From Escherichia phage wV7, in sequence record NC_019505.1: a stretch of 64,000 nt of DNA; one strand, 5' to 3'. Every line of letters begins with the position of its first letter. The stretch's first letter is position 1. Under the pieces are notes generated by a model. It ran no database searches. It was not told the DNA's origin and saw only the letters and a program-made list of their open reading frames with translations. A program made the position numbers and the translations under genes. Positions 8,469-38,215 of this stretch are shown piece by piece.

Positions 8469-8939
8469 TTAATCATGTTTCCACACCCCATCGGTATTTG
8501 ACCAAAGTCGCTGATTGTCTGATCCTCGCCACAGCTTTTTGGTCGGAAGATTTTTCTCATACTTCCCATCAATAATAACATCAACATATTTAAGCATTTC
8601 TAGTTGTTTAATATCTTCAAACTTATATCCTGTCCACAACCAAATGCTTTTATTGGGATAAAGATTTTTAATAGTTTGAACCACAGAGTGAATCACGTCT
8701 CTGTTATCAGGATAAAGAGGGTCTCCTCCAGTTATAGTTAATCCTTCTATATAATCATTATTCAAACACTGAATCAGTTTTTCTAATGTCTCTCCGGTGA
8801 ATGGAATACCATTTCTAGCATTCCATGTTGATTTATTATAACACCCTTCGCATTTATGCAAACAACCTGTAACGAAAAGAACGACCCTGCAACCAGGGCC
8901 ATTCACAAAATCACAAGGATAAAATCTATCATAATTCAT
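8469..8939 (-). CDS. nrdG: Anaerobic ribonucleotide reductase activating protein (radical SAM)
   Basis: 156 aa; CxxxCxxC-type cysteine cluster (CLHKCEGC); directly downstream of nrdD. Confidence 0.9.
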   Translation of the reverse strand: MNYDRFYPCDFVNGPGCRVVLFVTGCLHKCEGCYNKSTWNARNGIPFTGETLEKLIQCLNNDYIEGLTITGGDPLYPDNRDVIHSVVQTIKNLYPNKSIWLWTGYKFEDIKQLEMLKYVDVIIDGKYEKNLPTKKLWRGSDNQRLWSNTDGVWKHD

Positions 8940-10753
8940 TGATGCTTAACCCTATGCATGATTTCTTTATTTTTACCGAGATTAAATCCGCGCTCGTTCG
9001 GATTTCCCAAATAACCACATGTTCTTCTTATTGTATTCATCTTTTTAGGATCAGTTTCTCCACAAATAGAACAAACAAATCCGTTTTCAGTAGGAGTCAT
9101 TTCATGGGTACTTCCGCATGTAAAACATTTATCTACTGGCATATTAACACCAAAATAATCTAAATGTTGTGCAGCATAATCCCATACGGCCTCAAGGCCT
9201 TTTAAGTTATTTTTCATATCAGGAAGTTCAACATAAGAAATGTGACCACCTGTCGCAATGAAATGATATGGCGCTTCACGAGAAATCTTTTCAAACGGAG
9301 TAATATTTTCTTCTACTGAAACATGGAAACTGTTAGTGTACCAACCTTTATCGGTAACATCTTTTACGCTTCCATATTTTTCTGTATCGAGTTTACAGAA
9401 GCGATAACAAAGGTTTTCAGCAGGAGTCGAATATAAACTAAAAGCAAATCCGGTTCTTTCAGTCCACTGTTTAAGATGAGCATTCATTTTAGTTAAAATT
9501 TCTCGTCCAATATCACGACCGACAAGAATATTCAATTCGTGAATACCAATGTATCCTAAAGACACTGAACTTCTACCATTTTTAAATAACTCAATTATAT
9601 CGTCATCAGGTTTAAGACGAACCCCGAATGCACCTTCTTGGTAAAGAATAGGAGCAACAGTAGCTTTAACTCCTTTTAAGGAACTAATTCTACACATCAA
9701 AGCTTCAAAACATAAATCCATTCGTTCATTAAATAGCTCAACAAATTTCTGTTCATTGAACTGTGTTCCAATATAAGAATCTAACGCGATGCGAGGAAGA
9801 TTCAGTGTTACAACACCAAGATTATTACGTCCATCAAGAATTTCATTACCAGTCGAATCTTTCCATACGCTCAAGAAACTACGGCAACCCATTGGAGAAA
9901 CAGGAACAGATGAACCAGTGATAGCTTTATTGTTCTTAGCTGAAATAATATCAGGATACATCCTTTTGCTTGCACACTCTAGAGCAAGCTGCTTAATATC
10001 ATAATTCGGATCGTCTTTGTAAAGATTAACGCCTTCTTCGACGAACATAACAAGCTTAGGAAAAATAGGAGTTATCCCATCACGACCGAGACCTTTAATG
10101 CGGTTTTTAAGAATTGCCTTCTGAATCATTCGTTCAGTCCAGTCAGTTCCCGTACCAAATGTAATTGTTACAAAAGGCGTTTGTCCGTTTGAACTAAAGA
10201 GAGTATTTACTTCATATTCATAAGCTTGGAATGCATCGTATACATCTTTTTCTGTTTTAGATTGAGCATAATTTAACGCATCAGCGATTTGCCATTTTTC
10301 TGCATCCTCAATATGTTTTGCATAGGTGCGTTTAACATAAGGAGAAAGTACTTTATCTACATTAGCAAAAGTCGTTCCGCCATATTGATGGGAAGCAACT
10401 TGCGCAGTAATTTGTGCCATAATTGCAGTAGCAACGCCAATTGATTTAGGAGTTTCAATCTGTGCATTACCAAGCTTAAATCCGTTCTCAAGCATTCCTT
10501 TTAAATCTACTAAACAGCAATTAGTAAATGGAAGAGCAGGGGAATAATCAATATCATGGAAATGAATAATTCCGCTTTCATGCGCTTTCATAATAAAAGA
10601 CGGGACCATATTTTTGGCAATGTGTTTAGACACAATACCAGCCATAAGGTCCCGTTGAGTTGGAAAAACACGAGAATCTTTATTAGCATTCTCGTTTAAA
10701 AGGTCTTTATTAGTTTTATGAATCAATCCTTCAATTTCTTTTTCAATTGTCAT
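8936..10753 (-). CDS. nrdD: Anaerobic ribonucleoside-triphosphate reductase, intronless
   Basis: 605-aa uninterrupted ORF; C-terminal glycyl-radical region RRTCGYLG and CxxC zinc ribbon. Confidence 0.92.
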   Translation of the reverse strand: MTIEKEIEGLIHKTNKDLLNENANKDSRVFPTQRDLMAGIVSKHIAKNMVPSFIMKAHESGIIHFHDIDYSPALPFTNCCLVDLKGMLENGFKLGNAQIETPKSIGVATAIMAQITAQVASHQYGGTTFANVDKVLSPYVKRTYAKHIEDAEKWQIADALNYAQSKTEKDVYDAFQAYEYEVNTLFSSNGQTPFVTITFGTGTDWTERMIQKAILKNRIKGLGRDGITPIFPKLVMFVEEGVNLYKDDPNYDIKQLALECASKRMYPDIISAKNNKAITGSSVPVSPMGCRSFLSVWKDSTGNEILDGRNNLGVVTLNLPRIALDSYIGTQFNEQKFVELFNERMDLCFEALMCRISSLKGVKATVAPILYQEGAFGVRLKPDDDIIELFKNGRSSVSLGYIGIHELNILVGRDIGREILTKMNAHLKQWTERTGFAFSLYSTPAENLCYRFCKLDTEKYGSVKDVTDKGWYTNSFHVSVEENITPFEKISREAPYHFIATGGHISYVELPDMKNNLKGLEAVWDYAAQHLDYFGVNMPVDKCFTCGSTHEMTPTENGFVCSICGETDPKKMNTIRRTCGYLGNPNERGFNLGKNKEIMHRVKHQ

Positions 10754-19906: not shown

Positions 19907-19936
19907 ATAGTACCATAAAGCTTTATGCTTGTAAAC
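19907..19936 (-). promoter_or_regulatory. T4-type early promoter (upstream of P-loop ATPase gene)
   Basis: GTTTAC -35 and TGgTACTAT extended -10. Confidence 0.6.
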
Positions 19937-19960
19937 CGTTTTGTGAAAAATTTTTGAAAT

Positions 19961-19984
19961 AAAAAAGGGAGCCCGAAGGCTCCC
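19961..19984 (-). terminator. Rho-independent terminator (UUCG hairpin plus U-run)
   Basis: Minus RNA GGGAGCC-UUCG-GGCUCCC followed by UUUUUU. Confidence 0.65.
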
Positions 19985-28910: not shown

Positions 28911-29088
28911 CTAAACGAATAGGTTCATGAATGCCATATCCTTGAACAGAAATTTCTGTCGTAGGATAAATTCCATCAATATCACCCATATTCCAGGCTT
29001 CATTAAATTGCTGTTCGCCTGAATTACTAAACCACTCGGCGAAAGCATTTAGCACATCTTTAGAACCTTCAATAATTATCTTTGCCAT
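28867..29088 (-). CDS. Hypothetical small protein
   Basis: 73-aa ORF. Confidence 0.45.
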   Translation of the reverse strand: MAKIIIEGSKDVLNAFAEWFSNSGEQQFNEAWNMGDIDGIYPTTEISVQGYGIHEPIRLVEYDLCTGEEVKYD

Positions 29089-29450
29089 TACAAACTCTCA
29101 GTAAAGGTACGAGCGATAACGTCGCGCTGCTGTTCCGGAGTCAGAGAGTTAAAGCGAACTGCATAACCGGATACACGGATGGTCAGCTGCGGATATTTTT
29201 CCGGATGCTTAACTGCATCTTCCAGAGTTTCACGACGCAGAACGTTAACGTTCAGGTGTTGACCACCTTCAATTTTAACTGTAGGTTGTGTTTCAATTTC
29301 AATTTCACGGGCATGCAAACCGTAGAAAATTTCTGGGTCTACAAAAGAGTCCTCTTTAAAGGTTTTAGAGACAATAATTCGTGCTTGAATACCATCTTCA
29401 AAATAAATAGTACCTTTATGTGTGCCTTCAAGAATTTGATATGCTTTCAT
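29088..29450 (-). CDS. Autonomous glycyl-radical cofactor, GrcA/YfiD-like
   Basis: 120 aa; C-terminal [59 protein letters not shown] matches the E. coli GrcA C-terminus as I recall it; GC-rich 3' half. Confidence 0.8.
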
Positions 29451-35964: not shown

Positions 35965-36438
35965 TTATTTGATTTGTTTAGCAGACCAAATGCGGTCTTT
36001 AATAATTTTTTGGATGTCTTCAACATACTCAAGAGAGTGAGCATGTGGATTATCTTTGAAACTATAAGCACGAGCTAGTTTTTGGCCTTCAGTTTTGATT
36101 ACTAAAAGCTCTTTAAGGATAGCTTCATATTTGGAGATAATTCCTTTAACAATATTTTTCTCTTGTGCGACTTTAGGATCTGCTTTAGGAGCAGGTTTAC
36201 CCGAAGCCTTTGCAAAAGCAGCGCCAGTAGCAACTAAACTTTTCCAGGCCATACTAACTGCATTTCCCGTAAATCCTTCCGCTTTCATGTCGCGTGCGAA
36301 CTGGAATCGCGATTCATCAGAAGCATCTTTATAAGAATATTTACCCGCTGCAATGGCTGCTTTTGCGACAGCTTGAATTTCGGTGCTAGATGCTTCATTT
36401 AACACCGCTTCATTTAAAAATTGAGTATATGATTTCAT
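35965..36438 (-). CDS. Internal head protein-like, with capsid targeting sequence (cassette gene)
   Basis: 157 aa; N-terminus MKSYTQFLNEAV is a leader variant; minus-strand TATAAATA 40 nt upstream; flanked by near-identical terminator repeats. Confidence 0.65.
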   Translation of the reverse strand: MKSYTQFLNEAVLNEASSTEIQAVAKAAIAAGKYSYKDASDESRFQFARDMKAEGFTGNAVSMAWKSLVATGAAFAKASGKPAPKADPKVAQEKNIVKGIISKYEAILKELLVIKTEGQKLARAYSFKDNPHAHSLEYVEDIQKIIKDRIWSAKQIK

Positions 36439-36478: not shown

Positions 36479-36486
36479 TATTTATA
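36479..36486 (-). promoter_or_regulatory. Late promoter (TATAAATA) of cassette internal-protein gene
   Basis: Minus TATAAATA 40 nt upstream of ORF start 36438. Confidence 0.6.
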
Positions 36487-36519
36487 CCAAAAAGCCCCAA
36501 CCTTTCGGTCGGGGCTAAG
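36486..36519. repeat. Direct repeat copy 2 flanking internal-protein cassette
   Basis: Same 23-nt core as 35927-35949. Confidence 0.7.
36489..36514 (-). terminator. Rho-independent terminator upstream of cassette internal-protein gene (repeat copy 2)
   Basis: Minus RNA CCCCGACC-GAAA-GGUUGGGG followed by CUUUUU. Confidence 0.6.
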
Positions 36520-36825
36520 CCTTGCGGCAACCTTGTCGGGGTTCCACCTGCTAAGGCAAGTGTTTGTACGAAACGCCGGGATTCGAACCCGGTTATTAAG
36601 CAGTTGACGCTACTCAATATTTTTAAAAGGCCATATCTCGACCATATCCGAACGTTCCGTCAAAAACGCTACTCGGCTTACGGCAAAGATATTTCCTCGA
36701 ATCGATAATTCGGTGCGCCGTTTCTACTGTGATGTAAGAGGGCATCAATAAACGCAAAGATTATTAACGCAATTCCTTACTCAGGGAACATCAGTCCGAC
36801 GACTTACCGGTAGCGACCCGGTTTC
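36515..36825 (-). ncRNA. Candidate small stable RNA region with tRNA-like T-arm (possible analog of T4 RNA species 1/2)
   Basis: About 310 nt non-coding stretch downstream of tRNA-Arg; perfect T-arm-like hairpin CCGGGTTCGAATCCCGG near 36566-36592; ends at a terminator; boundaries not determined. Confidence 0.3.
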
Positions 36826-37176
36826 TTAATATTCTTTTAAAGCATCAATCTGTTTACGGCGTTCACGCCATAAATCAATTGCTTCATACGCGGATTCAAC
36901 ATTTCGAATTGGACGGCATTTATATAAAGATTTGTGATTTTGATATTGCGTAGATAACGGAATTTTATCTAAAAGGTCTTTACGTTCAAAGTATTCGTAA
37001 CCATCTAAGCCAAATGAACGATTTTTGAGAAATTGCCAATGACCAAATTCGTTTTGAATATAAATATAATCCGCATGTTGATAAAGTAAATTAATTTCAC
37101 GAAATGAGATATGTTTTTCATATTCATTGAAGTAAAATGTTAAATCATGAACTACTAAATAAACATTACCTTTCAT
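36826..37176 (-). CDS. Hypothetical protein inside tRNA region
   Basis: 116-aa ORF with strong GAGGAAAA RBS, just downstream of tRNA-Arg. Confidence 0.5.
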   Translation of the reverse strand: MKGNVYLVVHDLTFYFNEYEKHISFREINLLYQHADYIYIQNEFGHWQFLKNRSFGLDGYEYFERKDLLDKIPLSTQYQNHKSLYKCRPIRNVESAYEAIDLWRERRKQIDALKEY

Positions 37177-37194: not shown

Positions 37195-37270
37195 TGGTCG
37201 AGGCAGTAGGGATCGAACCTACGACCTAGGACTTAGAAGGTCCTTGCTCTTCCTTCTGAGCTATGCCCCG
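37195..37270 (-). tRNA. tRNA-Arg (anticodon UCU), CCA encoded
   Basis: Hand-folded cloverleaf: acceptor CGGGGCA/TGCCTCG, anticodon loop CTTCTAA, T-loop TTCGATC. Confidence 0.8.
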
Positions 37271-37274
37271 TAAT

Positions 37275-37350
37275 TGGGGTGACCGATGGGAGTCGAACCC
37301 ATGACTACGAGAATCACAATCTCGAGTTCTACCAACTGAACTACGGTCAC
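37275..37350 (-). tRNA. tRNA-His (anticodon GUG), CCA encoded
   Basis: Acceptor GTGACCG/CGGTCAC, anticodon stem CGAGA/TCTCG with loop TTGTGAT, discriminator C; no encoded G-1. Confidence 0.7.
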
Positions 37351-37464
37351 ATTAATACCTACTCCAACAATCAAGATGTCTTCACACGAAATTAAGAGAA
37401 GAGTGATCAGTTCAACCCCTATAATCGCGTCAAGTAGATATTAATGTGACAGTTGTCACAAATT

Positions 37465-37539
37465 TGGCGGACGTGATAGGATTCGAACCTATAACCAATC
37501 GCTTAACAGGCGATCGCTCTGCCATTGAGCTACACATCC
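37465..37539 (-). tRNA. tRNA-Asn (anticodon GUU), CCA encoded
   Basis: Acceptor GGATGTG/CACGTCC (one G-U), anticodon loop CTGTTAA, T-loop TTCGAAT. Confidence 0.75.
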
Positions 37540-37543
37540 AAAT

Positions 37544-37630
37544 TGGTGGGGAGTGGTGGAGTCGAACCACCCGAGTCGCAATGACAATGAATTTACAGTC
37601 CACACCGCTACCTCTACGGGATAACTCCCC
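37544..37630 (-). tRNA. tRNA-Tyr (anticodon GUA), long variable arm, CCA encoded
   Basis: Acceptor GGGGAGT/ACTCCCC, anticodon loop CTGTAAA, variable-arm hairpin GTC-ATTGC-GAC, T-loop TTCGACT. Confidence 0.7.
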
Positions 37631-37642
37631 TAATTCATAATT

Positions 37643-37717
37643 TGGTGGCCCTGGGTGGAATTGAACCACCATCTGGCGATTATGAGTCGCTTGCTTGAAC
37701 CTTCCAGCTACAGGGCC
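37643..37717 (-). tRNA. tRNA with CAU anticodon (Met, or Ile by T4 analogy), CCA encoded
   Basis: Acceptor GGCCCTG/CAGGGCC, anticodon loop CTCATAA, T-loop TTCAATT. Confidence 0.75.
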
Positions 37718-37718
37718 T

Positions 37719-37794
37719 TGGTGCTGATTGACGGAATCGAACCGCCGACCTTCTCATTACAAGTGAGTTGCTCTACCTACTGAGCTAAATCAGC
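37719..37794 (-). tRNA. tRNA-Thr (anticodon UGU), CCA encoded
   Basis: Acceptor GCTGATT/AATCAGC, anticodon loop CTTGTAA, T-loop TTCGATT. Confidence 0.8.
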
Positions 37795-37799
37795 AAAAC

Positions 37800-37889
37800 T
37801 GGCGGAGGTGATAGGATTCGAACCTATGAATCGCCGGAGCGACTGCCGGTTTTCAAGACCGGTGCATTCAACCACTCTGCCACACCTCC
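37800..37889 (-). tRNA. tRNA-Ser (anticodon UGA), long variable arm, CCA encoded
   Basis: Acceptor GGAGGTG/CACCTCC, anticodon loop CTTGAAA, long variable arm, T-loop TTCGAAT. Confidence 0.8.
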
Positions 37890-37891
37890 AG

Positions 37892-37965
37892 TCTCCATAC
37901 AAGGATTTGAACCTTGGACCTCCTGATCCCAAATCAGGCGCTCTACCAAACTGAGCTACACGGAG
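37892..37965 (-). tRNA. tRNA-Pro (anticodon UGG), CCA not encoded
   Basis: Acceptor CTCCGTG/TATGGAG (two G-U), anticodon loop TTTGGGA, T-loop TTCAAAT; followed by CT then next tRNA. Confidence 0.75.
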
Positions 37966-37975
37966 TAAATTAAAT

Positions 37976-38049
<74 letters not shown>

Positions 38050-38054
38050 AAATT

Positions 38055-38141
38055 TGGTGCGAGAAGTGGGACTCGAACCCACAAGGAAATCATTCCGCAG
38101 CATTTTAAGTGCTGTGCCTTTACCAATTTGACCATTCTCGC
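38055..38141 (-). tRNA. tRNA-Leu (anticodon UAA), long variable arm, CCA encoded
   Basis: Acceptor GCGAGAA/TTCTCGC, anticodon stem CAGCA/TGCTG with loop CTTAAAA, T-loop TTCGAGT. Confidence 0.8.
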
Positions 38142-38142
38142 G

Positions 38143-38215
38143 CTGGGAATAAAGGACTCGAACCTTTGCATCTAGCAGTCAAAGTGCTATGCCTTACCAA
38201 CTTGGCTAATTCCCA
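38143..38215 (-). tRNA. tRNA-Gln (anticodon UUG), CCA not encoded
   Basis: Acceptor TGGGAAT/ATTCCCA, anticodon stem TAGCA/TGCTA with loop CTTTGAC, T-loop TTCGAGT; abuts tRNA-Leu. Confidence 0.8.

Follow-up and report, generated by a model that had tools for sequence, protein, structure and literature searches.

A tract identical to E. coli grcA within vs.6, the GrcA homolog of Escherichia phage wV7, points to gene conversion by host DNA

We analysed a stretch of 64,000 nucleotides from Escherichia phage wV7 (sequence record NC_019505.1; hereafter 'the window') and concentrate here on an open reading frame (ORF) at 29088-29450 on the minus strand, which runs from an ATG start to a TAA stop and encodes 120 amino acids. 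Since this ORF is flanked by orthologs of T4 vs.7 and vs.5, we identify it as the Tequatrovirus ortholog of T4 vs.6, named Y06I in the older literature and a homolog of the bacterial protein GrcA (YfiD). Most of its 3' half is letter-for-letter identical to the grcA gene of E. coli, a pattern that we interpret as the footprint of a gene conversion of an older phage gene by host DNA, and that has a counterpart in phages of Klebsiella. The ORF and its parts are as follows.

29088..29450, minus strand: vs.6/Y06I ortholog (phage autonomous glycyl-radical cofactor), assigned from the ORF and from Pfam, TIGR04365, PDB and PHROG matches

29273..29450, minus strand: phage-type 5' half, codons 1-59/60, assigned from nucleotide identities, a profile of host N-terminal halves and GC content

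29098..29272, minus strand: host-derived conversion tract of 175 nucleotides, assigned because its sequence is that of E. coli grcA down to the synonymous sites (0/44 different)

29088..29097, minus strand: last three sense codons and stop (GAG AGT TTG TAA), outside the exact run

The gene, its family and its function were already known. The window comes from a genome of the T4 type. Record KP869105 (E. coli O157 typing phage 7, a Tequatrovirus) is 100% identical to the window over 1.3 kb around the ORF and labels it grcA, and hundreds of further Tequatroviruses show 96-99.8% identity over the same region. A single residue (T54P) separates the protein from T4 vs.6, the other 119 of 120 being identical. 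The protein matches PHROG 1209 over residues 1-120 (5.4e-63), and this full-length match, together with the conserved position between vs.5 and vs.7, places it in the T4 vs.6 group. The vs.6 stop overlaps the ATG of vs.5 (TAATG).

The protein also has the layout of the GrcA family, being a small stand-alone protein (the family is of about 14 kDa) whose C-terminal half is a Gly_radical domain. Pfam Gly_radical (PF01228) matches residues 60-101 with 67.2 bits (cut-off 22.2, E 2.2e-18) and reaches the end of the profile. The glycyl-radical motif RVSGYAV occupies residues 92-98 within sequence of the pyruvate formate-lyase (PFL) type, and its glycine, Gly95, is equivalent to Gly102 of GrcA and Gly734 of PflB. 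Among solved structures the top match is GrcA (6OWR, 4.6e-42), followed by residues 697-759 of PFL (1H16). BLASTP aligns the ORF to E. coli GrcA with 74/100 identities, and residues 60-120 (61 amino acids, EGGQH...TFTESL) are 100% identical to GrcA 67-127. With this identity and the known structures of GrcA and PFL, the fold is settled. Residues 20-120 align with positions 25-126 of the NCBIfam GrcA profile TIGR04365 at 154.6 bits, short of the curated equivalog cut-off of 170 because the N-terminal half is divergent and shortened; the NCBI annotation of RefSeq phage records names the protein GrcA despite this score. By its sequence, then, the ORF displays every feature of GrcA/YfiD (TIGR04365 / IPR011140) except the full-length NCBIfam cut-off.

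The tract comprises 175 consecutive bases identical to E. coli grcA (gene nucleotides 179-353, window 29098-29272) and encodes GrcA residues ~67-125, that is, the structured glycyl-radical domain. The last 185 nucleotides of the ORF are 98.4% identical to grcA in 5426/5426 complete E. coli genomes; a query with the 175-mer alone gives a 100% match in about one in two of the E. coli genomes sampled, and 5156 of the 5426 carry at most one mismatch. No synonymous change separates the tract from E. coli grcA (0/44 sites), either in the window phage or in T4. Directly 3' of the tract, the codons GAG AGT TTG present three synonymous differences to the GAA AGC CTG of E. coli. GAG AGT at this place is common to genes of the Pseudotevenvirus type and of Mosigvirus, which read GAG AGT CTA. 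Phages do not all have the tract end at the same 3' position: T4, which has GAA there, shows an exact run of 178 nucleotides. We considered whether GAG AGT is kept as a Shine-Dalgarno sequence for vs.5 and make no such claim, given the GAA of T4. Strains of O157:H7 are one base off the tract of the O157-typing phage, and many non-O157 strains match it 175/175.

Composition changes along with identity. In windows of 100 nucleotides the GC content is 0.46-0.50 across 29075-29274 and 0.23-0.39 in the flanks; the tract stands at 48.9%, the 5' half at 33.3% and the average of the window at 35.1%. GC content at third codon positions (GC3) is 0.19 in the 5' half and 0.41 in the tract. Only 0.7% of the 176-nucleotide windows in the 64 kb are as GC-rich as the tract, the others being a tRNA cluster and an unannotated segment at 36482-36689. 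An earlier note, made from the bare sequence, had proposed a GrcA/YfiD match over the last ~59 residues, a GC-richer 3' half and a homolog in T4; all three agree with what we found, and the nucleotide alignment and sliding GC plot that it proposed as checks gave a 175/175 match and a raised GC content.

Where did this DNA come from? In a megablast of the whole window against E. coli genomes, the tract was the only stretch found in every genome. The second match in each genome was the tract itself on pflB, with ~80% identity, and pflB is not the donor. Over a segment of 174 nucleotides, Escherichia sp. differs from E. coli grcA at 2 positions, Citrobacter at 14 and Salmonella at 29; the corresponding synonymous divergence (dS) is 0.05 for Escherichia sp., 0.41 for Citrobacter, 0.62 for K. 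pneumoniae and 1.07 for Salmonella, and the divergence of bacterial grcA thus looks as expected under vertical descent. The phage tract shows 0/44 synonymous changes while the other bacterial orthologs diverge, which designates E. coli itself as the donor. The transfer is recent when set against the speciation of enterobacteria.

A triplet test involving the window, E. coli grcA and vs.6 of the Karamvirus CC31 separates the two halves of the gene: informative sites are 7 host-like to 62 phage-like in the 5' half and 33 host-like to 0 phage-like in the tract (Fisher p = 3e-20 across halves). Other phage references give a similar outcome.

The same architecture is found in Klebsiella phages, with another donor. 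The tract of a KPV15-like Klebsiella phage (L108; 176 nucleotides) is 96.6% identical to K. pneumoniae grcA and 86.9% to E. coli grcA. An in-register comparison with K. pneumoniae grcA gives exact runs of 140 nucleotides in this phage and 146 in a second one (L157), both in the genus Jiaodavirus. The Jiaodavirus tract sits at the same position as in the window phage, and the terminal codons are again of phage type. GC3 in Jiaodavirus is 0.22-0.26 in the 5' half and 0.60-0.62 in the tract, the Klebsiella value being 0.67, and the triplet test for phage TU02 gives informative sites of 10:59 in the 5' half versus 36:4 in the tract (p = 2e-15). A total of 138 phage records, from Jiaodavirus phages of Klebsiella and Raoultella, match K. 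pneumoniae grcA with 90-99% identity over 173-176 nucleotides; other species of these two bacterial genera are 18-25 positions away from K. pneumoniae. Within the tract, the E. coli and K. pneumoniae genes differ by 19 synonymous and 3 non-synonymous changes. Klebsiella-type GrcA is distinguished from the E. coli type by E84L and K88E, and the Klebsiella phages carry the Klebsiella residues. Because each phage genus matches the grcA of its own host, at least two independent host-to-phage events, each specific for its host, are essentially demonstrated by these alignments. The donor was E. coli in the case of Tequatrovirus and Mosigvirus and K. pneumoniae in that of Jiaodavirus.

Two further Klebsiella-phage-like sequences (L099, 174 kb, and L100, 142 kb) present the Klebsiella-type LLDAVEH in the radical domain with phage-type codons, and their dS to K. 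pneumoniae is saturated; they represent either an old, decayed conversion or a convergent matching to the host protein. Two peculiarities of the bacterial records met in this comparison are that PLSDB lists a K. pneumoniae chromosome of 5.37 Mb among its plasmids (records concerned, CP125156.1 and LR134122.1) and that grcA is frameshifted in the assembly of K. aerogenes NCTC10006.

The E. coli-type tract is carried by more than 640 phage genomes. The corresponding genes of Karamvirus, Pseudotevenvirus, Slopekvirus-like and T5-like phages are unconverted, with 72-84% identity. Isolates of Tequatrovirus from Serratia, Yersinia and Hafnia carry the tract of the window phage: that of Serratia phage PhiZZ30 (L178) shares an exact run of 172 nucleotides with E. 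coli grcA and is far from Serratia grcA, and Yersinia isolates match the window tract at 98.4%. The tract records the history of a phage lineage and not the host of isolation.

How many times did the E. coli tract enter these phages? We addressed this by comparing Tequatrovirus (window phage and T4) with Mosigvirus (ST0, APCEc01, p000y and LF82-2). Between the two genera, in comparisons that offer 37-60 synonymous sites per segment and involve non-independent pairs, three layers are seen: the flanking genes vs.4, vs.5 and vs.7 have a nucleotide identity of 66-71% and a dS of 1.0-2.8, the vs.6 5' half 89-91% and 0.27-0.50, and the tract 97-99% and 0.05-0.12. Within Mosigvirus, dS is 0.10-0.18 in the tract and 0.02-0.17 in the flanks; since the tract is no lower than the flanks there, its low divergence between genera is not explained by a slow clock. 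Across six Tequatroviruses, synonymous diversity (pS) rises from 0.045 in the tract to 0.108 in the 5' half and 0.141 in vs.5; the vs.7 dS values of L083 and L086 in this comparison were left out, since an intergenic indel had offset the frame. Between Tequatrovirus and Mosigvirus, the tract is younger than its flanks.

These layers have to be weighed against a simpler history, in which the E. coli tract entered once and reached Tequatrovirus and Mosigvirus through recombination between phages, leaving one event in E. coli phages and one in Klebsiella phages. The 5' junction (AAAATT followed directly by GAAGG) is the same in the two genera, as are the codons GAG AGT that follow the tract. The identity between the window and ST0 (L165) is 0.82-1.0 from 29085 to ~29560, a block that comprises vs.6 and the last ~100 nucleotides of vs.7 and breaks off sharply at the very stop codon of vs.6, against 0.4-0.7 in the surrounding genes; the whole vs.6 cassette thus seems to have been exchanged between the genera more recently than its flanks were. 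In addition, the Mosigvirus tracts share derived variants, A81 and T97, which all E. coli genomes lack, so that this tract is inherited vertically in Mosigvirus and not continually refreshed. However, the tract shows only 2-5 synonymous differences over 44 sites between genera, compared with 8.5-13.5 over 37 in the adjoining 5' half, and T4 and the window phage differ at 0 positions in the tract and at 2-14 in each neighbouring segment; the tract is therefore younger than the rest of the cassette. The unequal 3' ends of the exact runs in T4 and the window phage also argue against a single entry. We regard a single entry as a real possibility, though one from which we lean away. Either separate conversions took place in the two genera, or one conversion was followed by the spread of a short patch from phage to phage.

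The tract variants are of limited help in naming donor alleles. The two variants of ST0 were considered as the mark of another E. coli donor allele and discarded, since 0/5426 genomes carry them; they are phage mutations that arose after capture. When phage tract variants were compared with 82 host alleles, 15/17 and 14/17 of them were seen somewhere, a nearly saturated result that does not discriminate between donors.

Is the N-terminal half of the protein foreign to GrcA? The earlier note had described it as AT-rich, which it is, and as unrelated, and had seen in the gene the capture of a host glycyl-radical module. Under such an illegitimate capture, a single event would have fused the module to an unrelated phage domain, and the gene has features of this kind: composition and identity break sharply at codon 59/60, and nucleotide identity of the N-terminal half to E. 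coli grcA is just ~44%. Yet, apart from the TIGR04365 alignment, which starts at residue 20, a hidden Markov model (HMM) to which 82 bacterial GrcA proteins contributed their N-terminal halves alone gives the phage N-terminal half 17.7 bits (E 3e-4), compared with at most 10.5 bits for 2000 shuffles. This half is accordingly a diverged GrcA N-terminal half, as family membership would have it. In nucleotide sequence it is 72-75% identical to vs.6 of Jiaodavirus and Karamvirus, whose C-terminal halves differ, and 89% to Mosigvirus. The N-terminal half is thus orthologous to that of unconverted genes such as those of CC31 and leB, which have phage-type C-terminal halves, and the last 10 nucleotides past the tract are of phage type, which requires two crossovers inside a pre-existing homolog. 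These two observations indicate that a complete phage grcA was in place before the patch. An illegitimate fusion consequently strikes us as very improbable: of the capture proposed earlier, the host origin of the 3' half is retained and the fusion to a foreign domain is not. The data favour instead a resident, AT-adapted phage homolog of grcA, one patch of which was overwritten through homologous recombination, both junctions lying at the edges of the only block kept ~80% similar by protein constraint.

Further GrcA-like genes were seen in metagenomic sequences. In seven IMG/VR contigs, mostly of 130-154 kb (L101-L106 and L113), the N-terminal half of the vs.6 homolog scores 41-46 bits with the same host HMM, versus 17.7 for the window phage, and the tract is 79-86% identical to grcA of Haemophilus or Aggregatibacter; this may be a separate and more complete capture in phages of Pasteurellaceae. 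Another IMG/VR contig, of 19 kb (L111), has a full-length grcA of the 127-residue type, 88.8% identical to Yersinia grcA over all 384 nucleotides, and is probably host DNA or a prophage flank instead of a phage vs.6.

Could the identity have arisen with no transfer of DNA, from purifying selection on the glycyl-radical domain combined with convergent codon usage? Very different phages and bacteria have almost the same C-terminal 60 residues, which denotes an intense constraint at the protein level. The C-terminal protein of Cronobacter phage leB (Pseudotevenvirus) and of an IMG/VR locus with the genome size of RB16 is identical to the E. coli type, and that of a locus with the genome size of RB43 has two changes; all three are ~82-84% identical to E. 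coli grcA in nucleotides, with 27-30 of ~44 synonymous sites changed (27-29 where the protein is identical) and a dS of at least 1.3. Constraint on the protein cannot then explain an identity in which the window phage has 0 synonymous differences, and Salmonella and Klebsiella orthologs also differ at 19-25 synonymous sites. Nor does the tract dS within Mosigvirus betray any special constraint on nucleotides. These counts effectively refute an origin by selection, to which we give next to no credence, and the 3' half is host DNA.

The reverse transfer, in which bacterial grcA would have received its 3' half from T4-like phages, has nothing specific in its favour, identity alone being silent on direction, and is hardly conceivable given that bacterial grcA is chromosomal, has ung as its neighbour in E. 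coli as well as in K. pneumoniae and occurs in 5426/5426 E. coli genomes, that its two halves have equal between-species dS and equal GC3, and that it is the phage genes in which GC3 jumps towards the value of each host.

What could the phage gain from such a protein? According to Wagner et al. 2001, as cited in PMC8683613, the PFL activating enzyme (PFL-AE) turns both YfiD and T4 Y06I into glycyl-radical forms, and the radical protein, in complex with PFL after its cleavage by oxygen at Gly734, restores activity. In YfiD, residues 61-127 form a structured domain that replaces PFL 693-759, and residues 1-60 are disordered yet aid binding to cleaved PFL and installation of the radical (PMC8683613). 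The patch coincides very nearly with the structured domain and the phage-type half with the disordered one. By analogy with T4 Y06I, the ORF product would be a 'spare part' for oxygen-damaged PFL: host PFL-AE would install a glycyl radical on the RVSGY glycine of the phage protein, whose C-terminal domain would slot into the cleaved host PFL and restore the production of acetyl-CoA and formate. During infection in the micro-aerobic gut, the phage copy could keep host PFL working after host gene expression has been shut off, and thereby sustain acetyl-CoA, ATP and fermentative energy metabolism. It could also sustain the supply of formate for the anaerobic ribonucleotide reductase of the phage itself, NrdD. 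Formate is the reductant of class III ribonucleotide reductases, and the relevant genes are in the window:

8936-10753, minus strand: nrdD, anaerobic ribonucleotide reductase (KP869105 annotation)

8469-8939, minus strand: nrdG, NrdD activase, labelled 'pflA' (KP869105 annotation)

In KP869105, vs.3, vs.7 and vs.8 are all labelled 'endoribonuclease RegB'.

As to the mechanism, T-even phages fragment host DNA and possess a very active recombination that accepts short homologies. Nucleotides 179-353 of the phage gene were replaced by an E. coli grcA allele, presumably in such a setting, through homologous or homeologous recombination (gene conversion) with host DNA, with crossovers at the two edges of the ~80% similar block. 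We have considerable confidence in the reading as a whole, namely a vs.6 spare part made of an old phage 5' half and a 3' part converted to the host allele, with a recurrence in Klebsiella phages. A stronger version, to which we would give a little short of an even chance, is that the module is repeatedly overwritten, during infection, by the grcA allele of the current host species and so tracks the PFL and activase of that host; conversion would then be ongoing or adaptive, as opposed to an occasional neutral accident.

Several observations weigh against these readings to varying extents. No Salmonella-type tract was found in phages at 95% identity or above, and E. coli phages of other genera are still unconverted, two facts that make conversion occasional and not obligatory. 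The 5' junction common to Tequatrovirus and Mosigvirus and the derived variants shared within Mosigvirus fit fewer entries of host DNA, and the age layers depend on the few synonymous sites and overlapping pairs mentioned above. The GrcA assignment has to accommodate the TIGR04365 score, the spare-part function is carried over from a T4 protein that differs at one residue, and both the link from vs.6 to NrdD through formate and the adaptive value of conversion are our own inference.

The gene belongs to textbook T4 biology, so that its presence in the window is ordinary and it is the nucleotide pattern that matters. The tract is unambiguous evidence, with overwhelming statistics behind it, that virulent phages of the T-even type occasionally recombine with the host chromosome, and it shows the place, since no other locus in the 64 kb has enough homology. 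If our interpretation is true, we have a rare and datable footprint of gene conversion from host to phage in strictly lytic T-even-type phages. As two phage genera carry the allele of their own host species, the tract serves as a marker of the recent host of a lineage that is more specific than the host of isolation, and the pattern suggests that an exact match of the spare part to host PFL and PFL-AE is valuable. For annotators and contamination filters, it is a reminder that 175 nucleotides of perfect identity to the host can truly belong to a phage genome.

Comparison with known systems helps to delimit what is particular to this case. T4 Y06I occupies the same place between vs.5 and vs.7 in the regB-denV region and carries the host-identical tract, differing from the window protein in P54 (T54 here) and in the length of its exact run. 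E. coli GrcA (6OWR) has the same two-part layout, the same C-terminal 61 residues with RVSGY and a homologous N-terminal half, whereas the phage N-terminal half is ~35% identical to it, AT-rich and seven residues shorter, and the phage gene lies in a lytic early/middle cluster and not beside ung. The C-terminal glycyl-radical domain of PflB (697-759; 1H16/2PFL), the part that the spare part replaces, shares the fold element and the motif, but at only ~80% nucleotide identity to the tract. Cyanophage psbA is an auxiliary metabolic gene of host origin with intragenic recombination between host and phage. There too a lytic phage holds a copy of a damage-prone component of host metabolism and exchanges patches with the host gene; in vs.6, by contrast, the exchange concerns a single module of 140-178 nucleotides with edges set by the limits of homology, and the patch is identical to the allele of the current host species in two phage genera.

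Nolan et al. 2006 noted the Gly_radical Pfam match of the gene and guessed at a role in nucleotide metabolism. In the searchable full-text literature, which does not extend to Miller 2003 and Wagner 2001, we found no description of the letter-perfect tract, of the gene-conversion architecture or of its recurrence in Klebsiella phages, and the host-specific pattern of conversion is possibly unreported.

Some other features of the window came up in these scans. Most of the GC-rich windows outside vs.6 are accounted for by a cluster of 11 tRNA genes on the minus strand at 37195-38215 (Arg, His, Asn, Tyr, Met(CAT), Thr, Ser, Pro, Gly, Leu and Gln); T4 itself has eight tRNA genes. Just downstream of this cluster, the segment 36482-36689, between the coding sequences at 35965-36438 and 36826-37176, has a GC content of at least 0.49 and no annotated gene, and may be a small stable RNA. 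At 19918-19969, 52 nucleotides with no annotated feature match a single E. coli genome (strain BE104) at 96%. Finally, megablast of 25001-50000 returned 219 places on E. coli plasmids and 216 records at 80-90% identity. The tract queried alone hits only five plasmid places and does not explain these matches, so some other part of 25001-50000 resembles plasmid or phage-plasmid DNA.

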